From: an uncultured virus (IMG/VR IMGVR_UViG_2061766007_000286)
Taxonomy: Duplodnaviria > Heunggongvirae > Uroviricota > Caudoviricetes
Strand: one strand, 5' to 3'
IMG/VR virus record: IMGVR_UViG_2061766007_000286
DNA length: 38,882 nucleotides
Shown one piece after another: positions 8,485 through 36,369 of the stretch. Position 1 is the first letter of the stretch; every line of letters starts with the position of its first letter. A program made the translations under genes and the position numbers. The notes beneath the pieces were generated by a model, which had not been told where the DNA came from, ran no database searches, and was given only the letters and a program-made list of their open reading frames with translations.

Positions 8485-9999
8485 CTAGACTTCGACTTCG
8501 GCGTCGGCGTCAGTGTCGCCTTCGACAGAGGGCTGCCAAGTGTCAGTCTTCTTGTCGACACCACCGATCTTGGGCTGACCAACGTTGACGTTGCCAGACA
8601 CCGTCATGGTGGCACCAGGGTTGAAGGACGCGTCACCATAGGAGATGCCAGAGGCTTCCCAAGGATTGGCGGTGCTACCGTAGGCGATCACCTTATCAGA
8701 ATTGGTGAAGACCACCATTCTGTAGAACTGACCAGCGCCAAGCAGGTTGGCCACGACGGCGTAACGAGACTTGACGATCAGACGAGGAGACCCGTCTTCC
8801 TGTCCGGCCGTCTTCGTGAAGATATAAGGAATATAAGGCATGAAGATGATACCAGCTTCACCCATACGAGCTCCCTTATAACCGACGAGAGCGTAGTCTT
8901 CTTCGGCATACACGTCGCGGTAGACCTTGATCATACCGGCATTCAGGGTACCGACTTCGGTGATGCAGCCATCAGCGTAGCCGTTGACAGCAGTTCCGAG
9001 GTAACCGGAAGGCTGATACAGACCGTTGTTCAGAGTGGTGATCGCAGCCAGGATAGCGGGCGAAACGATCGCGAAGTTACCGGCACCCATACGAGTGGTA
9101 ACGGCAACCTTCTGAGAGAGGGCGAGAATGGTATTGACCACACCGCCAGCGATGCGTTCACCAGCCCAACGACCGTCAGAAGGACCAAATTCTGTGCTCT
9201 GGTCGAGGTTGACCTGGATAGGAGCTTCGCCACCGAGACCGGCCTTGGTAGAAACCCACTTCATGTCTTCGAGGATTTCACGGTCGATTTCCTGCTGGAT
9301 TTCGAACTGGAGAGCTTCGAGGAGGTTGGCTTCAACGTCCTGACCATGGAGAGCGGCCATGTCCTGCTGCAGTTCAAGGGTGTACTGGGACTTGATGGCG
9401 CGAGTCTGAGCCATGGCAGTACCACGAATCACCTTGATAGAAGCAGTCTTGATGCGATGACCACCGAGTTCGGGAGGATTGGCACCCCAAGCTTCGGGAC
9501 CGGCATAGGTGTGAAGCTCGTGATGAGGAGCATCAGCACTATCGGGGTCGTTGGATTCCATGAAGTTCGAAAGATATTCACCTTCCGAAGTGCTCCATGC
9601 ACCAGGACCCTTGCCGGTGTAGTCGCGGTCGAGGTCGTAGCCGATTTCCTTCTTTTCGCCGTAGCGGAAGGCGCTCTTCTTCTTGGCGCTATAGTCGTAC
9701 AGATAACGCATAGCGAAGTAGACGCCAACCGGAGTCGTCATAGGAATGACGGCGACGGTGTTCATCGCGAGCAGTTCGGGGAACTGACGACGGATGAGGG
9801 GAAGGGCGTACTGCTGATAGACAGCGACGTCGGATGTAACGTTAGCGGACTCGGGGAGGAAGCCATTGTTCAGCTTTGCCTGGTTTTCAAACAAAGTAGA
9901 AAGAACCATAGCCTGTCCCTGACTCTTCACAGGAGCACCCATGGTGTTCTTGAGAAGAGGAGACCACTTGTTGATAAGGCTCTTGCCTGCAGTATTCAT
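8485..9999 (-). CDS. gp23: Major capsid protein, T4 gp23-like
   Basis: LINKWSPLL, LPLIRRQFPELLA..V.PMTTPVG..FAMRY, TRAIKSQYTLELQQD..A.HG.D.E..L..EIQQEIDREI, GYKG..EAGIIFMPYIP, PR....SRY. Confidence 0.96.
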   Translation of the reverse strand: MNTAGKSLINKWSPLLKNTMGAPVKSQGQAMVLSTLFENQAKLNNGFLPESANVTSDVAVYQQYALPLIRRQFPELLAMNTVAVIPMTTPVGVYFAMRYLYDYSAKKKSAFRYGEKKEIGYDLDRDYTGKGPGAWSTSEGEYLSNFMESNDPDSADAPHHELHTYAGPEAWGANPPELGGHRIKTASIKVIRGTAMAQTRAIKSQYTLELQQDMAALHGQDVEANLLEALQFEIQQEIDREILEDMKWVSTKAGLGGEAPIQVNLDQSTEFGPSDGRWAGERIAGGVVNTILALSQKVAVTTRMGAGNFAIVSPAILAAITTLNNGLYQPSGYLGTAVNGYADGCITEVGTLNAGMIKVYRDVYAEEDYALVGYKGARMGEAGIIFMPYIPYIFTKTAGQEDGSPRLIVKSRYAVVANLLGAGQFYRMVVFTNSDKVIAYGSTANPWEASGISYGDASFNPGATMTVSGNVNVGQPKIGGVDKKTDTWQPSVEGDTDADAEVEV

Positions 10000-16496: not shown

Positions 16497-16497
16497 C

Positions 16498-22233: not shown

Positions 22234-22257
22234 AAGGGCTAACCGAGNNNNNNNNNN

Positions 22258-22629
22258 GGCGATGGAACTTGCCAAGGCGAGAGACATAAACGCCGGGGAA
22301 TTGTACATTCACAAGGACCACTACAACCGAATCCACACGAATTTCACGAACATTTCGAAAAACATCCGCAAAACGGGTCTCACCTTCCACGGTGAACATG
22401 TCAGCGAAATAGACATCGTCTCCTCTCAGCCAACTTTGCTATATGCTTTATTGGTCTCCTGGTTCAAAAAGTGCGAAAACCATGCGAAAGAAGGTGCCGA
22501 CGGCAAATACTTCATCGAAGAACCATCGAAAAGGGTTGATATCCGGCAGAAATATGTGAACCGGAAGAACAAGTACCACGGGAGCAACATGTTCGCATGT
22601 GAACTCAACGAGAATTACGACCGTCTCGG
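22258..22629 (+). CDS. Internal fragment with family-A polymerase-like palm motif
   Basis: RIHTNFTNISKNIRK...GEHVSEIDIVSSQPTLL parallels the GR..(N/T)L..IR...D..Q segment around motif A. Bounded by gaps. Confidence 0.5.
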
Positions 22630-22663
22630 NNNNNNNNNNGACCTATAAACTGTGTTCAGTTCG

Positions 22664-23283: not shown

Positions 23284-23293
23284 NNNNNNNNNN

Positions 23294-23319
23294 GTTCCCG
23301 TCGAAACCAAAGCACCCCC
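23294..23319 (-). ncRNA. ssrA: Probable tmRNA 5' end (remainder lost in gap)
   Basis: Minus strand reads GGGGGTGCTTTGGTTTCGACGGGAAC, matching the conserved tmRNA 5' pattern GGGG-N-TG-N3/5-GG-N-TTCGACGGG, about 30 nt downstream of a promoter-like motif. Confidence 0.72.
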
Positions 23320-23347
23320 GAAGGGTTCATGTGTAGTTTATCAGTTG

Positions 23348-23361
23348 TAATATAGTATTTT
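23348..23361 (-). promoter_or_regulatory. AAAATACTATATTA promoter-like motif upstream of the putative tmRNA
   Basis: Shared motif; a late-like GATAAACT also lies at 23335-23342. Confidence 0.6.
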
Positions 23362-23411
23362 CCGATGCTGATAGGAGGGTTGCTCCGGCATTTTAAGTTT
23401 TTGATAGTATC

Positions 23412-24308
23412 TTAGATCAGTTTTCCGCCAGGAACACCGGCGTCTTCCAGCGCCTTCTTCAGTTTTTCGTCGCGTTCTGGCATGACATACCTATCAAGCT
23501 CGTTTCTCGGAACCTGTATGTGGTTGAACATGCCGCCTAGCTCAAGTATCTCGGATTCCTTTTCACCGATGCTAGGCGAAATATCTACAGCATATACGTG
23601 TTCCTCGTCAAGGTCGTCGTCCCATTCGTCGGTACTATAGCTGTAACCAGTACGATACAGATGCTTCTCATCGTTCAAGCGATCCTTGTCGTCGGCATAG
23701 AGGCTGTTCACAAAGGCCAGCACGTACTTGATTTCCCCACGAACACACATTTCATCTGGATTTCCTGGATACTGTCCGATATGCATCTTAAATCCAAGCT
23801 CCGGATATACAGACTCGGCGGCTTCTTTTATTCGATCACATATATCGCGTCTATCCTTTTTGTAAGCATCGCTAGCTATCTTGTACTCGGAATATTCTTT
23901 GTTATATCGTTCCATCGCGATAGCGTCGTCTTTGTTTTCTGGTTCACGCGGTCTGCGAGGATATGGACGAGTTACTTTTGAAGAAAACAGTACAGTATAG
24001 TCAGCAATACTGTTGTCCATCTTGTCTCCTATATATGTCATGTCGTGGGTACCGGGACGACCGTCCACAAAATTCTTGTGCTCGTCCGGATTGTTCATGA
24101 ACTTTTCGTAAGTTTTGTCGTCATATATCTCAAAGTTCTTCCCGGAATTTACCATGTACTCATAGTTTTTGTTCATTCTTTCCTCGAAATCCTTTTCAAA
24201 GTCGGCTTCGAAGATGACTGTGCGAATATCCTCGATGCTTTCAGAAACAGTCTTTGAAAAACCGGATTTCATCAATGAGTCGATGAACTCTTTTCTCTGC
24301 TTTTTCAT
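23412..24308 (-). CDS. Acidic hypothetical protein with the shared N-terminal leader (putative internal head protein)
   Basis: Leader FIDSLMKSGFSKTVSESIEDIRTVIFE; TATAAACT at 24338-24345. Confidence 0.75.
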   Translation of the reverse strand: MKKQRKEFIDSLMKSGFSKTVSESIEDIRTVIFEADFEKDFEERMNKNYEYMVNSGKNFEIYDDKTYEKFMNNPDEHKNFVDGRPGTHDMTYIGDKMDNSIADYTVLFSSKVTRPYPRRPREPENKDDAIAMERYNKEYSEYKIASDAYKKDRRDICDRIKEAAESVYPELGFKMHIGQYPGNPDEMCVRGEIKYVLAFVNSLYADDKDRLNDEKHLYRTGYSYSTDEWDDDLDEEHVYAVDISPSIGEKESEILELGGMFNHIQVPRNELDRYVMPERDEKLKKALEDAGVPGGKLI

Positions 24309-24345
24309 GGAGAACCTATAACGGTTTACACAAAATCAGTTTATA

Positions 24346-24374
24346 CAAAAACCGGGTGCAAAAGCACCCGGTTT
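24346..24374 (-). terminator. Terminator after uvsX, abutting the next late motif
   Basis: AAACCGGGTGC/GCACCCGGTTT stem with U-tract on the minus strand. Confidence 0.8.
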
Positions 24375-24390
24375 CGCATTCCATTCCAAC

Positions 24391-24801
24391 CTATCCAAGA
24401 ATCGCACCAGATCCACCGGAATACTTCCTAGCACGGTCCTCTGCGGTTTCAGCGTCTTCAAGGTTGTCCTCGTCGATCTCCAAAGCCTCTTCATTTTCGT
24501 CTCCGGAAGCGAAGTTGACTGGCTTCAGGAGCGGATACACCTTCTTGACCCAGTCGTTGATCGGTTCGAAAATGGTGCCGATGGTGCTCTCCTTGTGCAG
24601 GTCGTATTCCTTGCAAACGATCCAGTCCTTCGGATCCTTGTTAGGGTCCTTGATCACGTACCAGTTGAAGTTGCCTGCCTTCTCAGGACCGACCACTCCC
24701 TTCTTGTCGAACTTTGAAGCGCTCCACTTTTCAAGCAGTCCGGCTTCTTCGGCGAAGATGTGCAGACCGTACCACTTGTTCAACCCCTTTTCAAAGTTGA
24801 G
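24391..24801 (-). CDS. uvsX: UvsX/RecA-like recombinase, C-terminal fragment
   Basis: LNFEKGLNKWYGLHIFAEEAGL..NWY and an acidic tail match the T4-like UvsX C-terminus (F..GI..Y.GL...A...G). Confidence 0.62.
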   Translation of the reverse strand, partial: LNFEKGLNKWYGLHIFAEEAGLLEKWSASKFDKKGVVGPEKAGNFNWYVIKDPNKDPKDWIVCKEYDLHKESTIGTIFEPINDWVKKVYPLLKPVNFASGDENEEALEIDEDNLEDAETAEDRARKYSGGSGAILG

Positions 24802-24812
24802 NNNNNNNNNNC

Positions 24813-24977
24813 AGACTCGGAGCGTATGATATCGGCGAAGGCCGTCTCATTTTGAAACGGACGATTTATCTCGCCATCGCCTTCTCCACCGCATTGCTTT
24901 TCTTCGGTTCTGTCACCGGAGCATGCCTGCTTTACATCGGCAAAAACGTGATACCGTTGATAATAGGTCTGCTCTGA
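24813..24977 (+). CDS. C-terminal fragment of a membrane protein (not in the ORF track)
   Basis: Frame reads ..KRTIYLAIAFSTALLFFGSVTGACLLYIGKNVIPLIIGLL*; its TGA overlaps the next ATG (TGATG). Confidence 0.55.
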   Translation, partial: RLGAYDIGEGRLILKRTIYLAIAFSTALLFFGSVTGACLLYIGKNVIPLIIGLL

Positions 24978-25156
24978 TGTCGAAAGAATTACGCGACACC
25001 CACGAAGAAGACTGGAAGACCGATTCGTTTTACGAAGAGGTCAATGGAGACCTCGATGCAATGCGCGGAATGAAACCACAGAGCGGAGTTTTCGAGACCG
25101 ACGAAGAGTTTTTCCAGCGTAAGCGAGCCGAAAAATACAACAGGCAGAAACGCTAA
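24977..25156 (+). CDS. Small charged hypothetical protein (59 aa)
   Basis: ATG coupled to the upstream stop; MSKELRDTHEEDW... Confidence 0.55.
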   Translation: MSKELRDTHEEDWKTDSFYEEVNGDLDAMRGMKPQSGVFETDEEFFQRKRAEKYNRQKR

Positions 25157-25233
25157 AAATCCGCCGGCGCGAACTCAAGTTTTCCAAACAAATTTTTATA
25201 AACTAAAGTTGTGTGTTGCCAGTGGAGAAATCC

Positions 25234-25530
25234 ATGGAATTCATCGATGCATTCAAGGTACTGTGGGCGCCAGTGACGGCGATCATAACAGTTGCCATAT
25301 GGGTTGGTTCCTTAAAACACACCATAAACGACCACGAAAGACGCATAAAAGCTCTTGAAGTAGACATAGACGAGAGGGTAAACGCCATACAAACTCTTAT
25401 CCGCGAAGAAATTGGTGCTCTGAGAGAAGAGCTGAAAGACCAACGAGAAGCAGTTCAAGCACTCTCTATCAAGGTAGCCGAGCTCTCCACCACGCTACAG
25501 CTCACCCTGAAGAACAGAGAAGAAGACTAA
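25234..25530 (+). CDS. Single-TM coiled-coil protein (possibly lysis-related)
   Basis: TATAAACT at 25197-25204 and SD GGAGA. N-terminal hydrophobic VLWAPVTAIITVAIWVG followed by heptad repeats. Confidence 0.6.
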   Translation: MEFIDAFKVLWAPVTAIITVAIWVGSLKHTINDHERRIKALEVDIDERVNAIQTLIREEIGALREELKDQREAVQALSIKVAELSTTLQLTLKNREED

Positions 25531-25886
25531 TCATTTAAAAATCGATCCAGCATGGACTCCATCTGCCTCAGTTTGGAGTCGTCTATCTCTCCGTCGCAAT
25601 AAATTGACGGGCAAGATTCCGGAAATTGGAGCTCGTCGCTGGCATCGTCTATGTTGATCTCGACGAACCTGTGCTTTGATTGCGCGATGGACTTATGAAG
25701 AGTTATCCTAGATCCATCGTTAAGATACACGACGAACACGTGGGAGACATCCGGACTCTCGTCTCCCTGCTCGAATTCGTACTTGATCTTGTCCTTGACG
25801 AAGTGACCACGAAGACGGTCGAACACTTCGTTCATGACGGCGTTGACTCTATTGACCTTAGCCGACCTTTTGGGACTTATATACAT
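25527..25886 (-). CDS. Hypothetical protein (119 aa)
   Basis: Complete ORF; its stop overlaps the convergent gene's stop. Confidence 0.65.
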   Translation of the reverse strand: MYISPKRSAKVNRVNAVMNEVFDRLRGHFVKDKIKYEFEQGDESPDVSHVFVVYLNDGSRITLHKSIAQSKHRFVEINIDDASDELQFPESCPSIYCDGEIDDSKLRQMESMLDRFLND

Positions 25887-25907
25887 AGTTCCACCAAAAA
25901 TACTATT

Positions 25908-26853
25908 CTATATGATCTTCTGAACCCACTTCAACCGCTTCAGGTCGTTTGCGTACAAGTACTTGTCGTTTTCATCCAGCTTCAAAGGCTTGAACATCGC
26001 CTCGTAGTGCTTTTCCAGCGCAAGNNNNNNNNNNCCCGTTCTGGTCTCTTGCAACATCATTCGAACGGCTTTCTCCGATTCTAGTTCTAATAAAGTCTCT
26101 TGTTTTGCTGGCGGCACGTCCTTCGGCATCCTCGAAAATCGGATGGCAGGCTAAATATCCCTGTAGGACAGCTTCGCAGAGTTCCCGTTCACCAGACATG
26201 TTTTCAAGTCTGTAAATGAANNNNNNNNNNGTCCAGCTTCAAAGGCTTGAACATCGCCTCGTAGTGCTTTTCCAGCGCAAGCATTCCATTCCCGCTTATG
26301 AGCACGTTCTTCGGAGGAGTCTCCGCGACCCCGACCGAGAAGTGGTGTATCATCATCTGCGCCCACTTTGAACACGTGCGAATAGTGCCTGCCATGAATA
26401 TGGCAGGCGNNNNNNNNNNTCTTGGGTTTGGAGCTCGTGATGAAGTGTTCGTCTCGACCGTACTTCTTTATGGCCAGACCGGCATTGTCGATTATGTTTG
26501 CGACCTGGTAAATCGCGTCCTTGTCGCTGGCGATTTCATCGAACTGGCTNNNNNNNNNNGCTGTTCTTGATGGAGTCTATCAATGCGAACCCGGAATAGA
26601 CGTCCCCGCCCTCGGACGAAATGTTCAGCGTGATGTACGTGTTCTTCAAATTCTCTGGCTTCACGCTGGAATTGATCTGGTCTATCTGCGCGATCAACTC
26701 CTTTACGCTGTCGTCGTTCACCTCGCCTATCAACCAAAGCGGAATCTCGACCATCATCGTGTCGGTCTTCTCTATCGTCACATGAGGCTTAGTCTTCGTC
26801 TTGCCGGTTTCTGGAGCAGTTGATCGTCGTTTTCTCATCTTGCCGCCGTTCAT
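25908..26853 (-). CDS. clpP: ClpP-like (S14) protease, in three pieces: 26560-26853, 26231-26409, 25908-26024
   Basis: LIGEVNDDS..ITLNISSEGGDVYSGFALIDSI; AIFMAG..R......MMIH; D.YL.A. The catalytic Ser region falls in a gap. Unrelated fragments are interleaved. Confidence 0.75.
26035..26220 (-). CDS. N-terminal fragment of a WG-repeat family protein (leader region)
   Basis: FIYRLENMSGERELCEAVLQGYLACHPIFEDAEGRAASKTRDFI; overlaps the sequence of 34500-34606. Confidence 0.6.
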
Positions 26854-26897
26854 GTCTATAATATAGTTTATCTATTGGCACACCTATTCGCTCAGCG

Positions 26898-26931
26898 AAA
26901 AATTAAAAGCGGCGATCAAAAGACCACCGCT
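26898..26931 (-). terminator. Terminator after the 26957 gene
   Basis: AGCGGTGGTC-TTTT-GATCGCCGCT stem (two G-U pairs) and a U-rich tail on the minus strand. Confidence 0.7.
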
Positions 26932-26956
26932 CAAAATTTTCAAATAACTAAAATAA

Positions 26957-27460
26957 CTAAATTTCATTCACCTCATTCTGGACAATCTTGCAGAAATCGC
27001 TGGCATTCAACAGCTTTTCCTTTTCCCTGTCGCGAATAAACGTCGGACGACTCTTGTCATCGTCGTAATTAAGAAGGTCGTTCCCCCATGTATTTGTCGT
27101 TATGATGATGTCGAGAACGGCATCGCATTCCATCGCCTCGGTTTCATCGTTCAGTTCGAATATGCCATATTGTGCGCATATCTGGTATCGGCCGCCGGCG
27201 CACTTGAACGTAACCTCGGGCTTGGAGCTCGTGATGAAGTGCTCGTCGCGGCCATACTTCTTTATGGCCAGACCGGCGTTGTCGATTATGTTGGCGACCT
27301 GGTAAATCGCGTCCTTGTCGCTGGCGATTTCATCGAACTGGCTCGCGGCGTCCTTGACATACTCGTCGACGATTTCCTGCAGCTCTTTAAGAGGTTTGCA
27401 CAAATCGGCATCTTCTTTCTTGCGAACACACACGTCAACCTTTCTTATCTCTATCTTCAT
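26957..27460 (-). CDS. Hypothetical protein (variant copy of part at 26420-26549)
   Basis: ORF; the variant fragment differs mainly at third codon positions in this frame. Confidence 0.7.
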   Translation of the reverse strand: MKIEIRKVDVCVRKKEDADLCKPLKELQEIVDEYVKDAASQFDEIASDKDAIYQVANIIDNAGLAIKKYGRDEHFITSSKPEVTFKCAGGRYQICAQYGIFELNDETEAMECDAVLDIIITTNTWGNDLLNYDDDKSRPTFIRDREKEKLLNASDFCKIVQNEVNEI

Positions 27461-27469
27461 GTCCAATAC

Positions 27470-29500
27470 CTACCTGATCTTCGAGATCCTGTTCATGCGC
27501 TCAGAGGCGCTTGAAGAACTTTCCATGTTGTGGTCGAGGGCCCATTCTGTATAGCCGCGCTCGACCGTCATCACGAACGCGTGATACACCTGCGATTCTT
27601 CGTCGTAGAAGTACTTCACGTCGTACAATTCATCGTTTTCGCTGAGAGGGAGGTCGACATTGGAAGAGTGTGCGTTTGCGTAATTTATCAACTCCATCTC
27701 GTCCGACATGACCTCATGGAAATCCTTTTCCGCGGCGGCAGCGGCAAGTCTGGCGGCTTCATGTATGTCACCGGATTCCCCGTGACCGAACCCCATCACG
27801 AAGTCTCTGTCATGGTCAGAGGAGACGCGCCCGACCTCGTTGGAGAAAAGTTCGTCCATGTCAACGTATTTGTATTTGTCTACGTCCTTCTTCTGCCGTT
27901 CAAGATAACCCATGTCGGATATGTCTGCGATCGGGCTGTCTCCGACCACCGTCACCTTTGCACCGACTTCCCTGTTGAGCGCGTTCAACTTGTCTTGGGT
28001 CATGTTGTCCCAACCGTCTTCATAGTAGGCGGGAGCGTCGGTGTTGTCGGCGGTCTGGTCGTATTCCGCGTTGTCGCTTGGCTGGGCAAGCGCCATGTTG
28101 CCCGCCAGCGCACCAGCGAGAGCAACGTTCTTTACCTTTTTCATCGCAGGGGCGAACATTTCACCTAAGCGAGATTCAATCAATACCAGCGGGTACTCAT
28201 CTGGATTGGATTTATTTAGTTCTATAATCTTTTCGTTTACTTTGTCTTTTAGTTCATTTAGCGACACCTTCATCTCGGTAGCATACCGATGATACTCTTT
28301 CTCGATTTCCTTTAATTCTTCGCCTTGAACGCCATCGCGTATTGCATTTTTAAATCTCGACCATACATAACATGCCTCATTTTCAAGATCATCGATATGA
28401 TCGCACAATTCCTTGAAGTATTTTTTCGCAATTTCATCTCTGCATTCACTAATCATGCTCTGTTCATCGCAGTAATCTTCATAATCTCTGATAGCAGATT
28501 CCGGATCAAAACCACAAGTTATATCACCGGCACCTTCGAAAACCTCCTTCCGTATGTTGTTTGTCGACTCGCTTATCGCGTGTTCCGGGTACACCGCATT
28601 GAACACGGTTATGATGGCGCTCGCTTCGGCCTTGTCGCATATGGAGCAGATGGATTCAAGGAAAAGATAGCCATCGGAGTTTTCTCTAATTTCAGCCTCA
28701 TTACGGGGCATAGTCAAATCCTCCTTGTGTTTCATCTCCATCGCCTTGCTGACATAGCCGAAAATTGAATCCACGACACGCTTCGCGGCATCAAATGATA
28801 TTTCCATACCAGAATCTCTTGATGCTTCTTTAGCGAGTTCAACAATAACTTCATCATGTGTTTCACCGCCTTTGAAATAGTCGTTGGCGAGAATCCCATA
28901 CTTGTTGTTGCGACACATCCAAGAACTGAATGCGTCCGTCTGCTTTTTAATGTTTTCCCGTTCGGACATCGGAACACCGTACATGCTCAGGGGGTTCTCG
29001 TAGTCGGTGTCTTCCATGGATTCGAAAACGTCGCCGACCTTTCTGCTGTTCTCTTCTACCCAGTTATCGAACTCTTCCTTGTTGTTGAAAACGATATCTT
29101 CTTCAGGCTTCAACACATTCTTTGCCAGCTTGACCACATCCACTATGCGCTTGAACTCGCTTTCCGGTGTCCAGTTATCGTTTTTGTCATAATACCGGCC
29201 GTCATGATGCTTCCCGATAATCATGTACGTATAGGAATCATAGTCGATATCGTCGGCGTTTGGATAGTAGAACTCAAGCCCGACATCACCGTCTTTATAC
29301 ATTTTGATGCTACCGATCCACCAGCCGCTATACTGCTCGGCGATGTCTTCGTCGGACATAAGCACTCCATGCGTTCCAACCGTATCGTTTTCGAAAACGG
29401 CTCTCCGTATGCCGTTCACCGACTCGCACAGAGACTTCGAGATGCCGATTTTCTTCAAAGAGTCGAGAAACTCAATTTCCGTTTTTGACAAGGATTTCAC
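27470..29500 (-). CDS. Acidic multi-module protein with the shared leader (putative cleaved internal head polyprotein)
   Basis: Leader FLDSLKKIGISKSLCESVNGIRRAVFE; internal copy SESTNNIRKEVFE; TATAAACT at 29529-29536. Confidence 0.78.
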   Translation of the reverse strand: MKSLSKTEIEFLDSLKKIGISKSLCESVNGIRRAVFENDTVGTHGVLMSDEDIAEQYSGWWIGSIKMYKDGDVGLEFYYPNADDIDYDSYTYMIIGKHHDGRYYDKNDNWTPESEFKRIVDVVKLAKNVLKPEEDIVFNNKEEFDNWVEENSRKVGDVFESMEDTDYENPLSMYGVPMSERENIKKQTDAFSSWMCRNNKYGILANDYFKGGETHDEVIVELAKEASRDSGMEISFDAAKRVVDSIFGYVSKAMEMKHKEDLTMPRNEAEIRENSDGYLFLESICSICDKAEASAIITVFNAVYPEHAISESTNNIRKEVFEGAGDITCGFDPESAIRDYEDYCDEQSMISECRDEIAKKYFKELCDHIDDLENEACYVWSRFKNAIRDGVQGEELKEIEKEYHRYATEMKVSLNELKDKVNEKIIELNKSNPDEYPLVLIESRLGEMFAPAMKKVKNVALAGALAGNMALAQPSDNAEYDQTADNTDAPAYYEDGWDNMTQDKLNALNREVGAKVTVVGDSPIADISDMGYLERQKKDVDKYKYVDMDELFSNEVGRVSSDHDRDFVMGFGHGESGDIHEAARLAAAAAEKDFHEVMSDEMELINYANAHSSNVDLPLSENDELYDVKYFYDEESQVYHAFVMTVERGYTEWALDHNMESSSSASERMNRISKIR

Positions 29501-29537
29501 TGGAACCGCCTGTGGTTCTTATGTATGGAGTTTATAA

Positions 29538-30950
29538 TTATTGGGCATATTCCAAGAGCATTTCCATGATCTGCTCATCGGTCGGCTCAACACCTGAGAT
29601 GTACATTTCGCACATTCTATTTGCGACCTTTTCCAGCACGGATCCATAATTTGGACCTGGTTGAATTCCGATCTCCCTCATCATCCTGGATATGCTGTTG
29701 AACCTTGGTACGGCTTCACGAATCAACATCCGGACAGTTGGGATAAGATCCGCATAATCACCGTCGTCGCCGTATATGGCATGATTGACTTCCCGCAACC
29801 GGTCGAAGTCCTTGTTCTTCACAACATTTATAGCACCGATCGGATCGAGCTCTCCGAGCCGGCGATAATTATCCAGATTCCGGTAAATGAAACCGACGCT
29901 CCTTATCTGCTCGACCGTGCACCGGAAATACTGCATTGCAGCCTTCGCATCGTTCGTTCCGTAGAACAGCAACGCCAGCGATACAATGACATCTTTGTCC
30001 ATCTCGGCGAACAGCGGATCTGTTGCTCTCGTATCTGCCAGGTCTCTAGCTTTTTCCCAGTCGATGAAGCTGTTTGGATCTATGATCTCGCCACACCCAG
30101 TATCGTTCATAAGCGACACGACAGAGGCGAACTGCTTTGCTCCGTACTCGGCGGTTTTTATCAGCTCGTCTCGAACGCGTTCCATCGATATCCTGTTCAA
30201 CTGCCCCTTGCAAGCGATCATCCCCTTCAGGGTATCTTCCGCTATTGTCATGTCAAACCTTGCGGCAAAGCGCATTGCACGGATTATGCGTAGGGCGTCT
30301 TCGGTGAAACGCTCCGTCGGGTCTCCGACGGTTCGCAATATCCTGTTTCGCAGGTCCGCCACTCCGCCGTTGTAGTCGATAACATTCCCGTCCGCGTCGA
30401 TTCCCATTGCGTTTATTGTGAAGTCTCGGCGCCTGGTATCGTCCTCGAACGAATCGGTCCACGATACATTGTCAGGATGGCGGCCGTCGCTATAACCGGT
30501 TTCTGTTCTGAATTGAGTTACCTCGAACATGACACCATCGTTTTCCACGAGAATCGTGCCATGCTTCTCACCTCCGTTATCGGCCGTGTTGAACGCACGC
30601 TTCAGTTCTGCGATTGGCATATTGGTTGCGATGTCCACGTCATGGACGTCCTTGCTACCGTTGACGATGTCGCGCACGCATCCACCGACTATGTATGCCT
30701 CGTAGCCGTGTTCGTTTATCTTTCGCATCAGATCGATGCCTTTCTGGATGTCAGGATCCGGGAAAGAACTCCAGTCTATTTTATCGCCGTTCTCCGTGGA
30801 ACGGTCTGGTGTATGTTCCGGTTTTGCGTAATCATCTTCTCCCTCGAAAACAACCTTTCTGATATCGTTTATGCTTTCGCAAACCGGGCCGGGAAAACCA
30901 GCCCTCCGAAGATAGTTAATGAAGTCCCATTCTTTTTCCGATTCGTTCAT
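29538..30950 (-). CDS. cca: Class II tRNA nucleotidyltransferase (CCA-adding enzyme) with N-terminal leader extension
   Basis: YIVGGCVRD..DVDIAT, EVTQFRTE, RRDFTINAM, RFTEDALRIIRAMRFAARF, SMERVRDEL, GIQPGP.YG..L. TATAAACT at 30982-30989. Confidence 0.92.
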   Translation of the reverse strand: MNESEKEWDFINYLRRAGFPGPVCESINDIRKVVFEGEDDYAKPEHTPDRSTENGDKIDWSSFPDPDIQKGIDLMRKINEHGYEAYIVGGCVRDIVNGSKDVHDVDIATNMPIAELKRAFNTADNGGEKHGTILVENDGVMFEVTQFRTETGYSDGRHPDNVSWTDSFEDDTRRRDFTINAMGIDADGNVIDYNGGVADLRNRILRTVGDPTERFTEDALRIIRAMRFAARFDMTIAEDTLKGMIACKGQLNRISMERVRDELIKTAEYGAKQFASVVSLMNDTGCGEIIDPNSFIDWEKARDLADTRATDPLFAEMDKDVIVSLALLFYGTNDAKAAMQYFRCTVEQIRSVGFIYRNLDNYRRLGELDPIGAINVVKNKDFDRLREVNHAIYGDDGDYADLIPTVRMLIREAVPRFNSISRMMREIGIQPGPNYGSVLEKVANRMCEMYISGVEPTDEQIMEMLLEYAQ

Positions 30951-30991
30951 GAATCAAATTCTGGAAGCATCGTACAGTGTAAGTTTATAAC

Positions 30992-31020
30992 AAAAATGGG
31001 CACTGGTTGGTGCCCGTTTT
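30992..31020 (-). terminator. Terminator after the WG-repeat gene, abutting the late motif of cca
   Basis: AAAACGGGCAC/GTGCCCATTTTT hairpin on the minus strand. Confidence 0.7.
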
Positions 31021-31047
31021 GAATTGTTATGTGAAAGGCAGCTAATT

Positions 31048-32706
31048 CTATGTTATATCGTGCAAATTTCCTTCTTTGTCGATCTTATACCATTTTCCGT
31101 TCAGGCTGCCCTCGGCATATCCTTTATCGAAGAAGAAGCTGGCATTGTCAAACCACTCCTCACCTTTCCATAGGAGATTTCCGTCTTTGTCGATCCAGTT
31201 GTATTTGTTATCAAGTTCGACCCGGGCATATCCTTCGTCGAAGTTGTTGGCACCATCAAACCACTTCTCGCCTTTCCACAGGAGATCCCCGTCCTTGTCG
31301 ATGAAGTTATATTTTCCGTTCAGTTTGACCATGGCAGGTCCTTCGTCGAAGATGCCGGCATAATCAAACCACTTCTCGCCTTTCCATAGGAAATTCCCGT
31401 CCTTGTCGATCCAGTTGTATTTGTTATCAAGTTCGACCGTGGCGTATCCTTCATGGAAGCTGCCGACATTATCAAACCACTCCTCACCTTTCCATGGGAG
31501 ATTCCCATCCTTGTCGATGAAGCTCCATTTCCCGTTAAGTTCAATCCTGGCATATCCTTCATCGAAGTCACATGCATAATCAACCCACTTCTCACCATTC
31601 CACAAGAAATTCCCGTCTTTATCGATGAAGTTATATTTTCCGTTCAGTTTTACCACGGCATATCCTTCGCTGAAGACGTCGACACTATCAAACCACTCCT
31701 CCCCTTTCCATAGGAGATTTCCGTCTTTGTCAATCCAGTTGTATTCTCCGTTCAGTTCGACCCGGGCATATCCTTCATAGAAGTTACTGACATAATCGAA
31801 CAAACTTCTGTCATGCGTCTCGTTATACTTTTCAAGCTTCTCTCTGAAAGTATAAATACCCCTGGAATGCAATTCTTCCAACGAGAACGGTTTAAATGCG
31901 TCATAAAACGACTGACCGATTACATTGGAGATCTGTTCAACATCCATGATTGTATCGCCCTTGCCGCCGTCGTCATGGTGGTTCCACCTGCAGGCACAGG
32001 AACACAATGCAGGTCGGTTGTCGTCGTTCGCATCGTTAGTGACGAAGATACCGAACATTGACAGGCCGTATTCGTCGAGGGGGTGTCCTTCCCCTTCGAT
32101 TGGTTTCATCTTCTCAAATCCGTCCTTCAACACGAAATACGCCCGGTTTCTCCCGTTTCCCGAATATGTGTCCCATGCATCTTCGCTCTCTGTGATGCAC
32201 CATGTGTACGGTTCCGTCCACTTCGCATATTCCTGGGCTTCTTCGAAAGAGTGTATTTCGACTATGCGGTATGAATTGTTCTTCTCGTATTGCGTGGTGT
32301 TGATCCTGTTATATGTCTCTTCGGATTCCCTCGCCACATCCTTTCCGAATCTGGTCTTGAGCTGTTCGAACGAAAGGCCGTTCAAGTCTTTGTTGTATTC
32401 ATCTGCATGGGAACTGCTTATGATCTTCAGGATGTTCTTGAGAGTTGCAATGCCTATGTTGTCTTGACGATTTCCTTGGAAATCCAGGTTGTCAAACGCG
32501 ATTCTCGCGACACCCGGCTCGAACTTCTTGTTGATATAGTCGTTGTGGAAGAATTCGTTTCTGATCTTCAGCTCAAGACTCTGTGCGTCGATTGATTCTC
32601 CGAATCTGCTCCTGATGAATTCTCTTGTGGAATGCTGTGCTCTTTTGGCCGCGTCCTCCATGATCGGATGGCAGGCTAAATATCCCTGCAGGACAGCTTC
32701 GCAGAG
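31048..32706 (-). CDS. WG-repeat protein with conserved N-terminal globular domain (start in gap)
   Basis: N-domain WCIT..W..Y..DEYGLSM..CRWNH, followed by seven F.EGYA.V.LNGK.N.IDKDG repeats. Confidence 0.82.
   Translation of the reverse strand, partial: LCEAVLQGYLACHPIMEDAAKRAQHSTREFIRSRFGESIDAQSLELKIRNEFFHNDYINKKFEPGVARIAFDNLDFQGNRQDNIGIATLKNILKIISSSHADEYNKDLNGLSFEQLKTRFGKDVARESEETYNRINTTQYEKNNSYRIVEIHSFEEAQEYAKWTEPYTWCITESEDAWDTYSGNGRNRAYFVLKDGFEKMKPIEGEGHPLDEYGLSMFGIFVTNDANDDNRPALCSCACRWNHHDDGGKGDTIMDVEQISNVIGQSFYDAFKPFSLEELHSRGIYTFREKLEKYNETHDRSLFDYVSNFYEGYARVELNGEYNWIDKDGNLLWKGEEWFDSVDVFSEGYAVVKLNGKYNFIDKDGNFLWNGEKWVDYACDFDEGYARIELNGKWSFIDKDGNLPWKGEEWFDNVGSFHEGYATVELDNKYNWIDKDGNFLWKGEKWFDYAGIFDEGPAMVKLNGKYNFIDKDGDLLWKGEKWFDGANNFDEGYARVELDNKYNWIDKDGNLLWKGEEWFDNASFFFDKGYAEGSLNGKWYKIDKEGNLHDIT
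31060..31800 (-). repeat. Seven imperfect tandem 108-bp (36-aa) WG-type repeats
   Basis: Periodic AACCAC..CC.TTCCA and GTC.ATGAAG blocks every 108 bp. Confidence 0.88.
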
Positions 32707-32716
32707 NNNNNNNNNN

Positions 32717-33464
32717 CTTGTCAATGAAGTTCCATTTTCCGTTCAGTTCGACCCGGGCATATCCTTCTTTGAAGCTGCCAACACTATCAAACCACTTCTC
32801 ACCATTCCACAAGAAATTCCCGTCTTTGTCGATGAAGTTCCATTTTCCGTTCAGTTCGATCCGGGCATATCCATGCCAAAATCTGTCGACATAATCTAAC
32901 AAACTTCTGTCGTGTGTCTCACTATACTTTTCAAACTTCTCTCTGAAAGTATAAATTCCTTTGGCATGGAGTTCTTCAACCGAGAATGGTTTGAATGCGT
33001 TGTAAAAGGATTCGCCGATGACGTTTGAGATCTGATCGACGCTCATGACTTGGTCAGACCCACCGTTATCATGGTTCCATCTGCAAGTGCAAGTGCACAG
33101 CGTTGGTCTGTCCTCATCACCGATATCGTTTGTCACGATGACGCATATCATGGACAGACCGTATTCGTCCAATGGACAATTCTCACCTTTTTCTGGTTTC
33201 ATGTCATCGAAACCGTCCTTAAGGACGAAATAAACCCTGTTTCCACCATTCCCGGTATATGTATCCCACATGTTTTCCATGTGAGTCAAGCACCATCTTG
33301 AATTTGGATTGGTGTATTTGTAGTATTTCTTTGCTTCCGCGAACGATGGTATCTCAACGATTTCGTAGTCGTTGTTCCTCTCGTATTTCGCTGAACTGAC
33401 TCTCCTGTAGTCTTCTTCGGACGCGGCCGCCATGTTTTCGCCAAAGCGATCTTCGAGTTGTTCA
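32717..33464 (-). CDS. WG-repeat family paralog, internal fragment
   Basis: WCLTHMENMWDTY..DEYGLSM..CTCRWNH plus two WG repeats; clearly diverged from the 31048 copy. Confidence 0.75.
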
Positions 33465-33474
33465 NNNNNNNNNN

Positions 33475-33794
33475 CCCCTTTCCTCTTCACCGGTGGACAT
33501 CAGCTTCCCGCTCACGTTGAATCCGGCCGAATACGGATTTTCTCCCATTGCTATCCTGTCCATGTCTATCTCCACGGAATCCGTGTCGGACGCTCCGAGT
33601 ATGATGTAGTCTGGTTCCTGCCCAGGAGCACTTCCGGAATACTTGTTGTACAACGCGTCCTTTTCGGCCTGGCGTTCTTCCAGCCACTTCATCACGCCGT
33701 TTCCATGCGCATATCCTGGTATGTAGTTTCCGTCGCGCCACTGGCTTTCTTCCCGTGGCGTCATGTCGTCTCCGAATGTTTGACCGAATATCAT
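33475..33794 (-). CDS. Hypothetical late protein, N-terminal fragment
   Basis: ATG at 33794 downstream of the palindromic late motif; open to the gap. Confidence 0.55.
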
Positions 33795-33816
33795 GCTTGA
33801 ACCAGTTTCCCTAAAA

Positions 33817-33828
33817 AGTTTATAAACT
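33817..33828. promoter_or_regulatory. Palindromic bidirectional late-promoter-like element AGTTTATAAACT
   Basis: Same 12-mer as 11425-11436, again between divergent starts (33794 - and 33857 +). Confidence 0.72.
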
Positions 33829-33856
33829 ATAGTGGGAAAAGGATCCCGCACAGCCA

Positions 33857-34068
33857 ATGAATCCCGCCAACAACGCACAGCCTATCATAGCAATGGACCT
33901 GAACGGGTTCCTGATACCACCGACCAACATGAAACAGCTGGCGTTCACCATACCGATGAACGGCCCGCCTACCGGAACCGTCTCGTTCGTAGACTACGAA
34001 AACCAGATAACCGAGGGGTCCAAGATAACTTCCGTAGGCAACATCGCCACAAAATACGTGGTAGTCGG
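33857..34068 (+). CDS. N-terminal fragment, probably of the baseplate hub gene continuing at 34617
   Basis: Beta-rich start after the late motif; same strand as the headless 34617-35727 ORF. Confidence 0.5.
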
Positions 34069-34078
34069 NNNNNNNNNN

Positions 34079-34606
34079 ACTTTTTGGATTCGTGTATTCG
34101 TAGTATTTCTTTGCTTCCGCGAACGATGGTATCTCAACTATTTCGTAGTCGTTGTTCCTTTCGTATTTCGCTGAGCTGACTCTCCTGTAGTCTTCTTCTG
34201 AGGCAGCGACCATTCTCTCTCCGAATCTTTCAGACAGCTCATCAAACGACATGCCATTGAGATTCGCGTCATACTCATCCTTGTGAGCATTGCTAATGAT
34301 CTTCAGAATCCCCTTTAGCGTCTCCATTCTTCTGACATCGTAGTTTTCTCTTTCCATTCCGATGTCATCAAACACAATCCTGGCAACACCTGGCTCGAAC
34401 TTGATATTGGCATATTCATTATGGAAGAACATGTCGCGGATTTGGCGTTCAAAATAATCAACAACCGTTTGTTCTTTTCCACTTGCCGTCAGTATAGGTT
34501 CTCCGTTCTGGTCTCTTGCAACATCATTCGAACGGTCTTCACCGATTCTCGTTCTGATAAAGTCTCTTGTTTTGCTGGCGGCACGTCCTTCGGCATCCTC
34601 GAAAAT
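34079..34606 (-). CDS. WG-repeat family paralog/allele, N-domain fragment
   Basis: IFEDAEGRAASKTRDFI..KFEPGVARI..YEIVEIPSFAEAKKY, homologous to the other copies. Confidence 0.7.
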
Positions 34607-34616
34607 NNNNNNNNNN

Positions 34617-35727
34617 CGGCAAGACAAACACGAACTCGCTGCAGGTCACAACCTACTCGATGAACGTGAACAACCTGAACCCGCACAGCGACTGCGTTGC
34701 CAATTTCTCCGCCCAGAACGCTAGCACCCTTTCCAAGCAGACAGTCGCCATGTCCGGTACCTCCATGGACTGCCTGAAGAGACTTCTCGAAAAATGCGGT
34801 TTCCAAGTCGACGTGAAGCTCGACAAGAACGACAAGCTTGCAAGAGCCGACGAAATGACCTGGAGGTTCGTCCAGGACAACGTATGGGACCAGCTCAACT
34901 GGATAACCGAGCACTCATACCGTCCAAACGACTTCATGTTCTGGGCATACGACGACACCACCGGCAAGTTCAAGGTATCTTCCTTCAACACTGAAAAGAA
35001 GTCCGATCCGGTAAAGTACATGTTCGTGCAGAGCCAAAACGCGATGCGCGACAATCTGGAAGCCGCATTGCACAACGACAAATACGATGCCGACGTCTTC
35101 TTCTTCGACGCATTCTCGAAAACGGACACCCTCGCGTCGAACATGGAAGCCATATTCCCGAATGTCATAATATCCGGAACAACGTTCGACAAGAAGGGCG
35201 GTATAATAGCCATGGCACTCACGAAGCTGCTTGGCAATGACGGAACGACCGGAACGCAGTTCTCCCAGTTCCTGAAGTCGCAGGGAGATACCAAGCAGAA
35301 GGATATAGCGGCAAGATGCGGGTTCACAGATACCGACGTTGCACTTGGACCGCTTCAGCTGATAAACCACTTCCCGCAGAACGTCCATAGATATTATTCC
35401 ATCGCGCCCGTGTGCAGGAAACGCGAGCTGGCAACCTATTCGAAGATGGTCAAGCTATATGTAATCAACAACATCGGACCATCTGTCGGCAGCTATTGCG
35501 ACTTGTTCATACGCACACCGGACAGAGCCCATCTGGACAATCGGTACAGCGGCGAGTATATACTGTTGCAGAAGACGATAAGATTGAACAACGTGATGAA
35601 ATCGCTTACCGGCGACAAACCGGCGCAGACGCCTATCATGGTCACGGAAATGCTGTTCGTGTCAGACCAGTACAACCTGCTGCAGACGGACAAGTACGAT
35701 GAGATCTACAAGGAAGTGATGGCCTGA
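34617..35727 (+). CDS. Baseplate hub-like protein (T4 gp27/gpD-like), 5' end in gap; allelic duplicate at 38675-38882
   Basis: W..LNWI..HS......FWAYD and C-terminal P.VG....L......YSGEYIL pattern typical of hub proteins. Confidence 0.55.
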
Positions 35728-35731
35728 CGCG

Positions 35732-36263
35732 TCATCGACTAATTTTCCCGTCTTTGTCGATCTTGTACCGTTTTCCGTCCTGTTCGACCTCAGCGTATCC
35801 TTCGTCGAAGTTGTCGGCATCATCGAACCACTTCTCACCTTTCCATAGGAGATCCCCGTCCTTGTCAATGAAGTTCAATTTTCCGTTAAGTTCAACCCTG
35901 GCATATCCTTCTTTGAATCTATAAACCTGGTCAAACCACTTATCCCCGCCACCGATCAACTCTCCATCCTCGTCGATGAAGCTTTGTTTCCCGTTCTGGT
36001 CGACGACTGTGGCATATCCTTCAAAGAAGAAACCGGTATCACGAAACCACTTCTTACCACCACCGATCAATTCACCATCTTTGCCGATTAAGCTGCGTTT
36101 TCCGTATGCCCCAACTTTAGCGTAACCGTTATGGAAATCATTTGCGCCATCAAACCACTTATCCCCACCACCGATCAACTCTCCATCCTTGTCGATGAAG
36201 CTCCATTTCCCGTTAAGTTCAATCCTGGCATANNNNNNNNNNCTCAACAAATGCTTTATTCAT
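35732..36263 (-). CDS. WG-repeat family protein: C-terminal repeats (35732-36232) and a probable start MNKAFVE (36243-36263) across a gap
   Basis: Repeats with the ELIGGG.KWF variant; ATG at 36263 follows TATAAACT at 36290-36297. Confidence 0.72.
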
Positions 36264-36318
36264 GATATAACTCGGCGTCGCTTGACAATAGTTTATAACA
36301 AAAACGCGTGTAAATCCT

Positions 36319-36340
36319 CCTCAAAAAATACTATATTATA
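36319..36340 (+). promoter_or_regulatory. Promoter-like element CCTCAAAAAATACTATATTATA upstream of uvsW
   Basis: Exact match to 8376-8397 (minus). Confidence 0.65.
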
Positions 36341-36369
36341 CACGAGGTGCGTCGACCGCATCCCACAAC

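Follow-up and report, generated by a model that had tools for sequence, protein, structure and literature searches.

The subject here is a gene, and especially the N-terminal extension of its product, found within a stretch of 38,882 nucleotides from an uncultured virus (IMG/VR record IMGVR_UViG_2061766007_000286). That whole stretch, referred to below as the window, covers part of the genome of an uncultured, T4-like phage with a gp23-type major capsid protein, and DNA nearly identical to it is found in runs labeled bovine gut metagenome (X1-X4). The gene (29538..30950, minus strand) encodes a leader-bearing, CCA-adding-type tRNA nucleotidyltransferase of 470 amino acids (aa), an assignment based on its open reading frame (ORF) along with Pfam, PHROG, NCBIfam, Protein Data Bank (PDB) and fold matches. 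Ahead of the enzyme's catalytic core is a leader of 36 residues, one that ends sharply in Phe-Glu and that is carried as well by otherwise unrelated proteins. The reading that we favor, giving it somewhat better than an even chance on the strength of sequence and of analogy with phage T4, is that this leader is a propeptide resembling the T4 capsid-targeting sequence (CTS), i.e., that the tagged enzyme would be packaged in the phage head, with the leader cut off after Phe-Glu. Tagging and then loading is as a principle already known from T4; what appears to be new is that T4-like phages of the cattle gut have a family of long leaders, predicted to form two helices and bounded by Phe-Glu, whose cargo includes a CCA-adding enzyme.

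The enzyme and its N-terminal extension

The catalytic core, consisting of head, neck, body and tail (residues 57-470 plus stop codon; 29538..30782, minus strand), starts at the point at which leaderless homologues begin and is modeled with a predicted local distance difference test (pLDDT) score mostly above 86. Pfam places the PolyA_pol head domain (PF01743), which is of the Pol-beta type, at residues 85-206 (E 1.6e-32) and PolyA_pol_RNAbd (PF12627) at residues 233-266, while residues 83-437 match PHROG 2244, 'tRNA nucleotidyltransferase', at 7e-59. The top NCBIfam model is NF009814, whose profile positions 6-379 (of 396) align to residues 68-451; the score of 245.8 bits does not reach that model's equivalog cut-off of 290, with PcnB lower still at 152 bits. 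The catalytic motifs are present as GGCVRD (89-94), DVD (104-106), RRD (174-176) and EDALR (217-221), and in an alignment of the window protein with 20 homologues (21 sequences) the invariant residues include G89, G90, V92, R93, D94, D104 and D106 as well as R174, R175, D176, D218, L220 and R221, with E217 also present in the window enzyme. The DxD carboxylates, which bind metal, constitute motif A, and RRD (motif B) together with EDxxR (motif D) supplies the protein template for CTP and ATP selection.

The best sequence matches among solved structures are CCA-adding enzymes (6IBP, 1e-48; 1MIV, 3.4e-46), with poly(A) polymerases ranking lower, at about 1e-26, and chains named A-adding or 'poly A polymerase' at 1e-20. 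The AlphaFold2 model (mean pLDDT 88.5, predicted template-modeling score 0.78) aligns by Foldseek to 1MIV_A over 419 columns (E 4.9e-20) with a target-normalized template-modeling (TM) score of 0.77. That is, the Bacillus-type class II CCA enzymes of Geobacillus stearothermophilus (1MIV) and Planococcus halocryophilus (6IBP/6QY6), which are the nearest solved relatives by sequence and by structure alike (target-normalized TM 0.77-0.79), have the same catalytic motifs and the same four-domain fold, but begin about 63 residues later and are 26-28% identical to the window enzyme in structural alignments. By sequence and by model the window protein thus is an intact, four-domain enzyme of the CCA-adding type, though whether its specificity is for CCA, CC or A is not something that sequence tells. 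The original prediction of an intact class II nucleotidyltransferase with GGxVRD, DxD, RRD and EDxxR, made before any database had been searched, accordingly is borne out by Pfam, by the 21-sequence alignment and by the likeness of model to 1MIV.

What sets this enzyme apart is what precedes its core. The leader proper (residues 1-36; 30843..30950, minus strand) is modeled as two helices, at residues 4-16 and 22-34 (pLDDT 57-67), and ends in V34-F35-E36. There then follows an acidic linker (residues 37-56; 30783..30842, minus strand; isoelectric point, pI, 4.26), of which residues 37-55 are modeled as disordered (pLDDT below 50). Leaderless homologues start with 'MKIDW', equivalent to K57 of the window protein, and in keeping with this placement of the boundary, residue 3 of 1MIV aligns to window residue 66 and position 6 of the NCBIfam CCA profile to residue 68. 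The extension, which had been put at about 60 residues consisting of a shared leader plus an acidic linker, therefore comes to about 56.

The leader is missing from cellular CCA enzymes and from about 100 of the closest homologues. In a survey consisting of the window enzyme and its 120 best database homologues, in which the pattern GG[ACS]VRD could be located in 116 of the 121 rows (5 did not match the expression), 33 or more residues stand ahead of the core in 16 rows of the 116, with 26 or fewer, and mostly 0-2, in the remainder. A database protein 95% identical to the window's (P0001) carries the leader, differing by an insertion or deletion in the linker region. The same enzyme family is represented, without a leader, by the phage tRNA nucleotidyltransferases of PHROG 2244 (for example, Mycobacterium phage Wildcat gene 8, Bacillus phage G gp522 and Xanthomonas phage XacN1 ORF446), which are encoded by large phages rich in tRNA genes. 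Of 157 GenBank phage records that match the window enzyme, not one covers its residues 1-34; among the matches listed the earliest start is residue 42.

The leader also must be translated, since a stop codon lies just two codons upstream of ATG1 and since the only other ATG, GTG or TTG among the first 90 codons is ATG75, with M75 lying inside of the core and past the invariant W60 and G71. This speaks strongly against the possibility, raised originally as a caveat, of a true start downstream of the leader.

The leader as a portable module

Two other window proteins begin with the same leader. One consists of 676 residues (27470..29500, minus strand), has the leader at residues 1-37 and has further V-F-E tripeptides at 158-160 and 320-322. 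The other consists of 298 residues (23412..24308, minus strand), with leader residues 1-34 ending V-I-F-E, and has a near-identical database member (P0121). BLASTP aligns residues 4-38 of the CCA enzyme with residues 5-39 of the 676-aa protein (40% identity, E 4e-6) and, in addition, residues 17-40 with internal residues 302-326 of that same protein (E 0.009), the latter corresponding to a second, internal copy of the last 16 leader residues (HAISESTNNIRKEVFE; 28535..28582, minus strand). In an all-versus-all blastp-short comparison of the N-terminal 55 residues of 136 ORFs, leader-sharing pairs score from 7e-9 to 2e-5, including the 298-aa protein against the CCA enzyme (7e-9) and against the 676-aa protein (2.5e-8). 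The six-frame translation contains the pattern IR[KR]x[VILFA][FLIVY]E at three places, all within the CCA enzyme or the 676-aa protein. Identical leader residues often are specified by different codons (e.g., at 5 of the 9-10 identical positions within the last 16 residues), which argues for conservation at the level of protein rather than for a DNA repeat. All three leader proteins are acidic (pI 4.5-4.9), and in none of the three does any Pfam or PHROG match fall within the leader.

For a wider view, a profile was built from seven leaders, three from the window and four from a related phage contig designated G1 (below), among which M1, F10 and E36 are invariant, and it was searched against 1,835,955,588 cluster representatives. 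There were 84 matches at E≤1e-3, seven of them at E≤1e-10, from which four long, repetitive proteins matching only profile positions 4-19 were set aside to leave 80. The leader starts within the first nine residues in 73 of these members and further in for the other seven, some of which probably represent mis-called starts or read-through fusions. It ends as hydrophobic-hydrophobic-[FLMIY]-[ED] in 72 of the 80, and the residue that follows is S in 21, N in 20, G in 11 and A in 6 (58 of 72), with similarity stopping there. Two subtypes can be distinguished: type A, as found in the window, which has the form ...SLCESINDIRKAVFE, and type B, ...NFLESLK..GN.SLIESI..GY..IFE.

What lies behind the leader varies. 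The proteins range in length from 38 to 667 residues and, with Pfam run on 83 of the 84 matches (leaving out the 38-aa P0199), 56 of the 79 non-repetitive leader proteins scanned show no Pfam family at all. Among the 23 that have any Pfam match, WG_beta_rep is seen eight times, the ART-PolyVal ADP-ribosyltransferase (ART) five times and the AAA_33 kinase twice, with one each of an AAA_15/AAA_21 (ABC-type) ATPase, GNAT, WDGH and PEGA; also found are a ClpP fragment and one weak, sub-threshold 2H phosphoesterase/tRNA-ligase-CPD match. The AAA_33 P-loop kinases and the weak 2H-phosphoesterase/tRNA-ligase-CPD proteins that carry the leader are P0126, P0176, P0160 and P0166, and there is in this, taken together with the CCA enzyme, no more than a hint of an RNA-end healing set. 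In P0143 a single chain comprises ART-PolyVal, an internal leader and DUF5661, and in G1 an ART-like gene likewise runs into a leader-bearing gene (117576-118521); these fusions may be polyproteins with an internal cut site.

Within the window the leader appears to extend also to WG-repeat proteins. The gene directly upstream of the CCA gene (31048..32724, minus strand; paralogues at 33827-34627, with fragments at 26035-26220 and 38398-38685) encodes a WG-repeat protein whose N-terminus (…LCEAVLQGYLACHPIME, followed by D) appears to be a shortened and diverged version of the leader. A profile of the 73 N-terminal family members matches the N-termini of the WG-repeat paralogues, though more weakly (E 2.5e-4, 1.7e-3 and 0.027), and these short leaders end in P-I-F-E or P-I-M-E, which together suggests a truncated form of the same leader. 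The WG-repeat (PF14903) paralogues, which as a group occupy 31048-36250 and 38398-38685, have the conserved short N-terminus MSGERELCEAVLQGYLACHPIFE, followed by D, and their repeats break the assembly.

G1, a 131-kb IMG/VR contig estimated to be 31% complete, has matches to ten window proteins, among them the adaptor-like protein (74% identical) and the helicase (56%). Its own CCA enzyme, 41% identical to that of the window, has a type-B leader (MKNFKQFRTFLESLK...YEIVFE, then G), and at least three other G1 proteins have type-B leaders as well, ending YELIFE before N, YDLIFE before A and PDIME before L; one of these G1 leader proteins (296 aa) is syntenic with the 298-aa leader protein of the window. 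In both phages, that is, the leader subtype of the CCA enzyme is the subtype of that phage's other leaders. A word-based search of G1 and of G2, a second, 132-kb contig from an unrelated phage, with the G1 leader returned only that leader itself, with the additional G1 leaders coming instead from whole-contig comparison. The core of the G2 CCA enzyme is 72% identical to the window core and has a different N-terminal extension; G2 otherwise shows one weak match to the window. As that extension has no detectable paralogue within G2, we do not call it a leader.

When 116 cores were placed in a maximum-likelihood tree, the window enzyme and P0001 grouped with three enzymes bearing other extensions (Shimodaira-Hasegawa-like approximate likelihood ratio test, SH-aLRT, 99). 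The sister of this group is a leaderless enzyme, and the 11 enzymes with type-B leaders fall in a separate clade. The simplest reading of these sequences is that leader and core are separable modules, with the combination of leader and CCA enzyme having arisen, or having been renewed, more than once, though the tree by itself is compatible too with one origin followed by several losses and cannot separate the two. Five of the type-B leader CCA enzymes (P0028, P0077, P0090, P0102 and P0103) retain a Met as the very first residue of the core (…NMKIDW), a Met that the window gene does not have at this position, and which could be either a relic of an original start or a second initiation site giving rise to leaderless enzyme. 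In another clade of phage CCA enzymes (seven rows, SH-aLRT 100), a 10-13-residue N-terminus, M..(D/V)FM..FE-KFE, stands just before the core; it recalls the 10-residue T4 CTS in its length and in its Glu ending, and is seen at L005:7056-8327 and L013:9974-11236 and in P0053-55, P0058, P0071, P0073 and P0094.

Searches in other directions returned little. By tblastn, neither leader subtype matched any of 50,697 GenBank phage records at E≤1, and no cultured relative came to light. A pattern scan of 185,579 species genomes with the first 60 residues as query, which is able to find close relatives only, gave two loci and nothing credible, one being a chance match inside of a MutL-like ORF and the other a match of 15 residues. 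Nor was any other full-leader ORF found within ±10 kb of the leader-bearing CCA genes on L002-4, L006, L012 and L026.

Proposed packaging in the head and its alternatives

The favored reading, spelled out, is as follows. The portable, 36-residue, two-helix tag would dock the CCA enzyme to the core of the assembling prohead, as the CTS does for T4 internal proteins, and would do the same for the other tagged proteins, i.e., the 676-aa and 298-aa proteins and the WG-repeat paralogues. A head-maturation protease would then cut after the conserved Phe-Glu, which in the CCA enzyme is between V34-F35-E36 and G37; the mature chains of the 676-aa and 298-aa proteins would correspondingly begin at N38 and A35. 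The mature enzyme would stay in the head and enter the next host along with the phage DNA, there restoring or adding 3'-CCA ends prior to the expression of any phage gene. Its use could be the repair of host tRNAs damaged by toxins or defenses that target 3' ends, a head start for phage tRNAs that are encoded without CCA, or both.

The precedent is T4, in which internal proteins IPI, IPII and IPIII as well as Alt likewise share an N-terminal leader despite being unrelated proteins of a single phage, a leader that ends hydrophobic-x-Glu. According to PMC9026906 and PMC3012670, the ten N-terminal residues of IPIII suffice for targeting to the head, gp21 cuts after L/I-x-E, and IPI-III and Alt leave the head together with the DNA; there is also a proposal that the CTS serves in evolution as a device by which varied proteins are loaded. 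Alt is described in PMC5512222 as the prototype of injected ADP-ribosyltransferases. The likeness to T4 thus includes the gp23-type capsid protein and the presence of ADP-ribosyltransferases among leader cargo. The giant phages phiKZ and SPN3US provide a second parallel, with many head-packaged proteins whose propeptides are cut after Glu by gp21-like proteases, and with redundant or internal cleavage sites that recall the putative ones of the 676-aa protein here (PMC9026906). These phages differ in lineage and in cleavage logo, however, and what PMC9026906 sets out concerning them does not describe a long, shared N-terminal leader family. In contrast to the T4 internal proteins, the cargo considered here is a tRNA enzyme, with the leader consensus being …F-L-E-S-L-K…S-L-I-E-S-I…I-F-E.

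The neighborhood of the gene is consistent with a role in the head. A 6232-nt contig from runs X1 and X2, in which 25000-25973 is joined directly to 26231-26406 and then, after 49 other letters, to 26560-31216, places the CCA gene, the 676-aa gene, a 169-aa gene and a protease-like gene all on one strand; as X1 and X2 may be the source sample of the window, this contig is not independent evidence. The last of these genes, which resembles ClpP-related head-maturation proteases, has its N-terminal part at 26560..26853 (minus strand) and, following the contig, continues through 26231-26406 and 25887-25973 for a total of about 200 codons. Its N-terminal third gives weak, partial matches to PHROG 94 (3e-7) and to Pfam CLP_protease (7e-5). 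The major capsid protein (8485..9999, minus strand; Pfam Gp23, PF07068, 7e-66), whose identity to the capsid proteins of cultured T4-like phages is only about 29%, has L36-F37-E38, at nearly the same distance from its N-terminus as the Phe-Glu of the leaders, and also L48-P49-E50. In a HMMER alignment its residues 7-42 are paired with 8-42 of T4 gp23, such that L-F-E-N-Q faces I-F-E-N-Q in T4, where maturation removes the first 65 residues of gp23 (the chains being 521 and 456 aa). A candidate relationship in which the leader is a copy of the capsid propeptide was considered and dropped, as the leader profile does not match the capsid protein.

The original prediction was that the enzyme is packaged, matured by cleavage after VFE and then injected. 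The part of it having to do with a leader has been strengthened by the N-terminal leader family, the sharp Phe-Glu boundary, the unrelated cargo that includes Alt-like ADP-ribosyltransferases, the match of leader subtype to phage and the one-contig context; presence in the virion, cleavage, the protease responsible and ejection are what we infer from these.

A number of points weigh against packaging, and they are best given together. At 34-38 residues and two predicted helices, the leaders are much unlike the 10-residue CTS of IPIII, so that by length the two do not correspond. T4 has the prohead protease gp21, while here the only candidate is the ClpP-like gene, whose score with NF045542 is 23.7 bits against a cut-off of 120. 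Pfam finds no gp21-type Peptidase_S77 (PF03420) in 36 window ORFs (nor in the partial G1, though there the control genomes were silent as well, making the result uninformative), and Glu-specific cutting consequently is not transferable by homology. The alignment of the capsid N-terminal segment with that of T4 gp23 is weak taken alone, at 8.9 bits. Tripeptides of the form [VILM][FM]E are not enriched overall (15 versus 13.2 expected), but 6 of the 15 fall within 40 residues of an N-terminus (binomial p 0.010), which counts in favor. WG-repeat proteins make for odd cargo within a capsid. The scaffold, furthermore, is jumbled at its runs of N, such that gene order outside of the contig spanning 25000-31216 is unsure. 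In G1, lastly, the leader-bearing CCA gene sits among tRNA and enzyme genes, with CTATATTA about 50 nt upstream and, within 80 nt, no copy of TATAAAC, the promoter-like motif that precedes the CCA gene of the window; late-only expression of the tagged enzyme is thereby not conserved.

That same placement of the G1 gene, between tRNA clusters, beside enzyme genes and behind a motif other than TATAAAC, speaks for the most serious of the alternatives, which we nonetheless consider unlikely, namely that the enzyme acts solely within the infected cell, where it would mature those tRNAs that the phage itself encodes without CCA, and that the leader is an uncleaved two-helix module for partner binding or oligomerization that has nothing to do with the capsid. 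G1 has 28 predicted tRNA genes in three clusters (L082:4251-8344, L083:5334-6952 and L088:5742-7419), with its CCA gene between two of these, and by a check of flanking sequence 27 of the 28 lack an encoded 3' CCA; no tRNA genes were found in the window. Phage CCA enzymes are, moreover, usually taken to be tRNA-maturation genes in accounts such as PMC5852040 and PMC6102473, and the leader helices are modeled with only moderate confidence. An intracellular binding module does not, however, explain why 72 of 80 members have a sharp Phe-Glu-type boundary plus a small residue beyond which similarity ends, why just the last 16 leader residues recur inside of the 676-aa protein, or why the cargo should include Alt-like ADP-ribosyltransferases. 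About 100 of 116 close homologues, many of them on phage contigs, also work without any leader.

Cutting of the leader might instead occur in the cytoplasm. The leader would then be a pro-sequence, i.e., a zymogen or timing device and no packaging signal, holding its cargo inactive or localized up to a certain time and removed by some other peptidase, such as the product of an M16-family-like gene at 20713-22161 (minus strand), which matches Peptidase_M16_C at 6e-19. M16 enzymes process presequences and leader peptides, and the tagged cargo includes enzymes that potentially are harmful to the cell producing them (ARTs, kinases and the ABC-type ATPase). We judge this to be quite unlikely, however, as the M16-like gene is broken by a gap of 353 N, has no detected G1 homologue and is matched only by an inactive-type domain; as a 20-residue disordered linker joins leader to core with no modeled contact that would obviously inhibit the enzyme; and as the neighbors on a single contig are, rather, a leader protein and a head-maturation-type protease-like gene.

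Alternatively, the leader could be a docking peptide, one fixing variable proteins to the outside of the virion as decorations of head or tail, with the CCA enzyme a passenger. Conserved N-terminal anchors serve interchangeable tail spikes in just this way, WG-repeat proteins with the look of binding modules are the commonest identifiable cargo (8 of the 23 with a Pfam match) and are present as several paralogues in the window, and TATAAAC precedes tail-fiber-like genes too. An external location nevertheless would be useless to a tRNA enzyme, to P-loop kinases, to GNAT proteins and to ADP-ribosyltransferases, all of which have cytoplasmic substrates, and an acidic, disordered linker along with a boundary at Glu resembles propeptides rather than structural anchors, making external docking distinctly improbable. 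Scarcely credible, finally, is that the extension is an annotation artifact with the true start lying further downstream: there is no evident Shine-Dalgarno-like sequence upstream of ATG1, and the core-start Met of type-B enzymes makes a leaderless product conceivable in those relatives, but the position of M75, the upstream stop codon and the retention of the leader at the protein level, in P0001 as well, all stand against it.

Returning to packaging, the question of what an injected CCA enzyme would be for has more than one answer. The original prediction assigned it an anti-defense purpose, but repair of host tRNAs cannot be separated from maturation of phage tRNAs, for which, with 27 of the 28 G1 tRNA genes lacking CCA, the case is at least as good. 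Anti-defense repair and phage-tRNA maturation thus are equally plausible as uses, of which there are at least these two, and both would profit from the enzyme being present at entry. MenT toxins are related to the AbiEii abortive-infection toxins. For MenT3, which acts on tRNA 3' ends, counteraction by a cellular CCA-adding enzyme is described in PMC11541572, and CCA-adding enzyme is counted among the RNA-repair functions of jumbo phages in PMC7824862. A full-text literature search returned no published report of a virion-borne CCA-adding enzyme, though supplementary virion lists could hold one; in the supplement for Atu_ph07, a tRNA nucleotidyltransferase appears in the annotation table only and not as a virion protein.

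A broader proposal can be advanced, one that we offer tentatively and consider rather doubtful as a whole. Under this proposal, T4-like phages of the rumen would possess a hitherto undescribed tag of 36 residues and two helices, in two lineage-matched subtypes and with a strict Phe-Glu cut site, by which interchangeable cargo is loaded into capsids, i.e., a tRNA/RNA-end kit (CCA enzyme, P-loop kinase and possibly 2H phosphoesterase), Alt-like ADP-ribosyltransferases and hypervariable binders built of WG repeats. Recruitment of the CCA enzyme would have taken place at least twice, from different lineages, such that having a ready tRNA 3'-end enzyme at the time of DNA entry would be under recurrent selection, for instance against toxins of the MenT/AbiEii kind.

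Were packaging as favored here true, then the load-clip-inject principle of T4 would extend to a longer leader family, to the cattle gut and to an enzyme of translation repair as cargo. Some phages, that is, would bring along a capacity for tRNA-end repair or maturation before any phage gene is read, which bears on the evasion of tRNA-targeting defenses and on making CCA-less phage tRNAs usable. The leader profile additionally would provide a sequence handle by which candidate injected proteins could be listed in metagenomes, including those with no known domain, and the leader could be used, as is the T4 CTS, to direct foreign proteins into capsids.

Transcription signals, assembly and other genes

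The motif TATAAAC lies 33 nt upstream of the ATG of the CCA gene (30983..30989, minus strand), again between the CCA and 676-aa genes, which are 37 nt apart (29530..29536, minus strand), and upstream of the 298-aa gene (24339..24345, minus strand). It occurs 16 times in the window versus 2.95 expected, with 16 or more in none of 100 shuffles, and 12 or 13 of these copies sit in the correct orientation 25-45 nt upstream of start codons. The genes so preceded include the adaptor-like gene, tail-fiber-like genes, certain enzyme genes and the genes of the three proteins with a full leader. The two strands of G1 have 24 and 19 copies, including upstream of the adaptor homologue and of the 296-aa leader protein. 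Likeness to the T4 late consensus, TATAAATA, is suggestive only; allowing up to one mismatch, that consensus is itself only mildly enriched in the window (31 versus 20.3 expected), the exact local motif being TATAAAC. A second promoter-like motif, AAAATACTATATTA, has five copies (at 8385, 22227, 23355, 26866 and 36331), which precede the genes for the helicase, for a homing endonuclease and for the protease-like protein, among others. The motif about 50 nt upstream of the G1 CCA gene is of this second kind.

One terminator-like hairpin (30998..31015, minus strand) ends the upstream WG-repeat gene, and the first such hairpin after the CCA gene on the same strand is at 26907..26932 (minus strand). 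In the direction of transcription the order thus is hairpin (31015-30998), TATAAAC, CCA gene, TATAAAC, 676-aa gene, 169-aa gene, hairpin (26932-26907) and protease-like gene. Scans of 22000-36500 for sigma-70 promoters and for terminators were overall at the level of shuffled sequence, and only these two hairpins, at gene ends, are used here. As no terminator-like site intervenes before 26932-26907, the transcription unit probably consists of the CCA, 676-aa and 169-aa genes, with the second TATAAAC internal to it. The claim that the CCA gene is expressed as its own unit is therefore half right, i.e., the motif and the preceding hairpin are both present, but the unit probably does not end until after the next two genes. 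The claim of a late promoter leans on analogy with TATAAATA and on the position of TATAAAC before structural genes, and the G1 CCA gene has a different motif.

The 169-aa protein (ORF at 26957..27466, minus strand) is acidic, with I-F-E at residues 102-104, and is possibly scaffold-like. It was assigned to no family, the best feature score in an ESM Atlas search being 0.78 with a model of low confidence.

The window as a whole is a scaffold interrupted by 26 runs of N (852 N in total), and the pieces between these runs are in part duplicated or misplaced. Thus, 26420-26549 duplicates part of the 169-aa gene, 26035-26220 duplicates the start of a WG-repeat gene, and the sequence of a single 473-aa G1 homologue appears in permuted order across two ORFs at 22262-23350. 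The stretches so affected include 25974-26560 and 22248-23293, along with other runs of 10 N. By Pfam and PHROG it encodes, besides the gp23-type capsid protein, baseplate-like, tail-fiber-like and head-tail adaptor-like proteins, a helicase and homing endonucleases. Two homing-endonuclease-like genes (7166-8351, minus strand; one DUF559-like, the other DUF7487 / PHROG 3339) directly adjoin the major capsid gene. A block of lower GC content (38-43%) on the plus strand, 13870-20419, encodes two Stealth_CR2 proteins, a GT4 glycosyltransferase, a TupA-like ATP-grasp enzyme and a methyltransferase; it has the look of a module for modification of surface polysaccharide or of a teichoic-acid type, and two of its genes have TATAAAC upstream.

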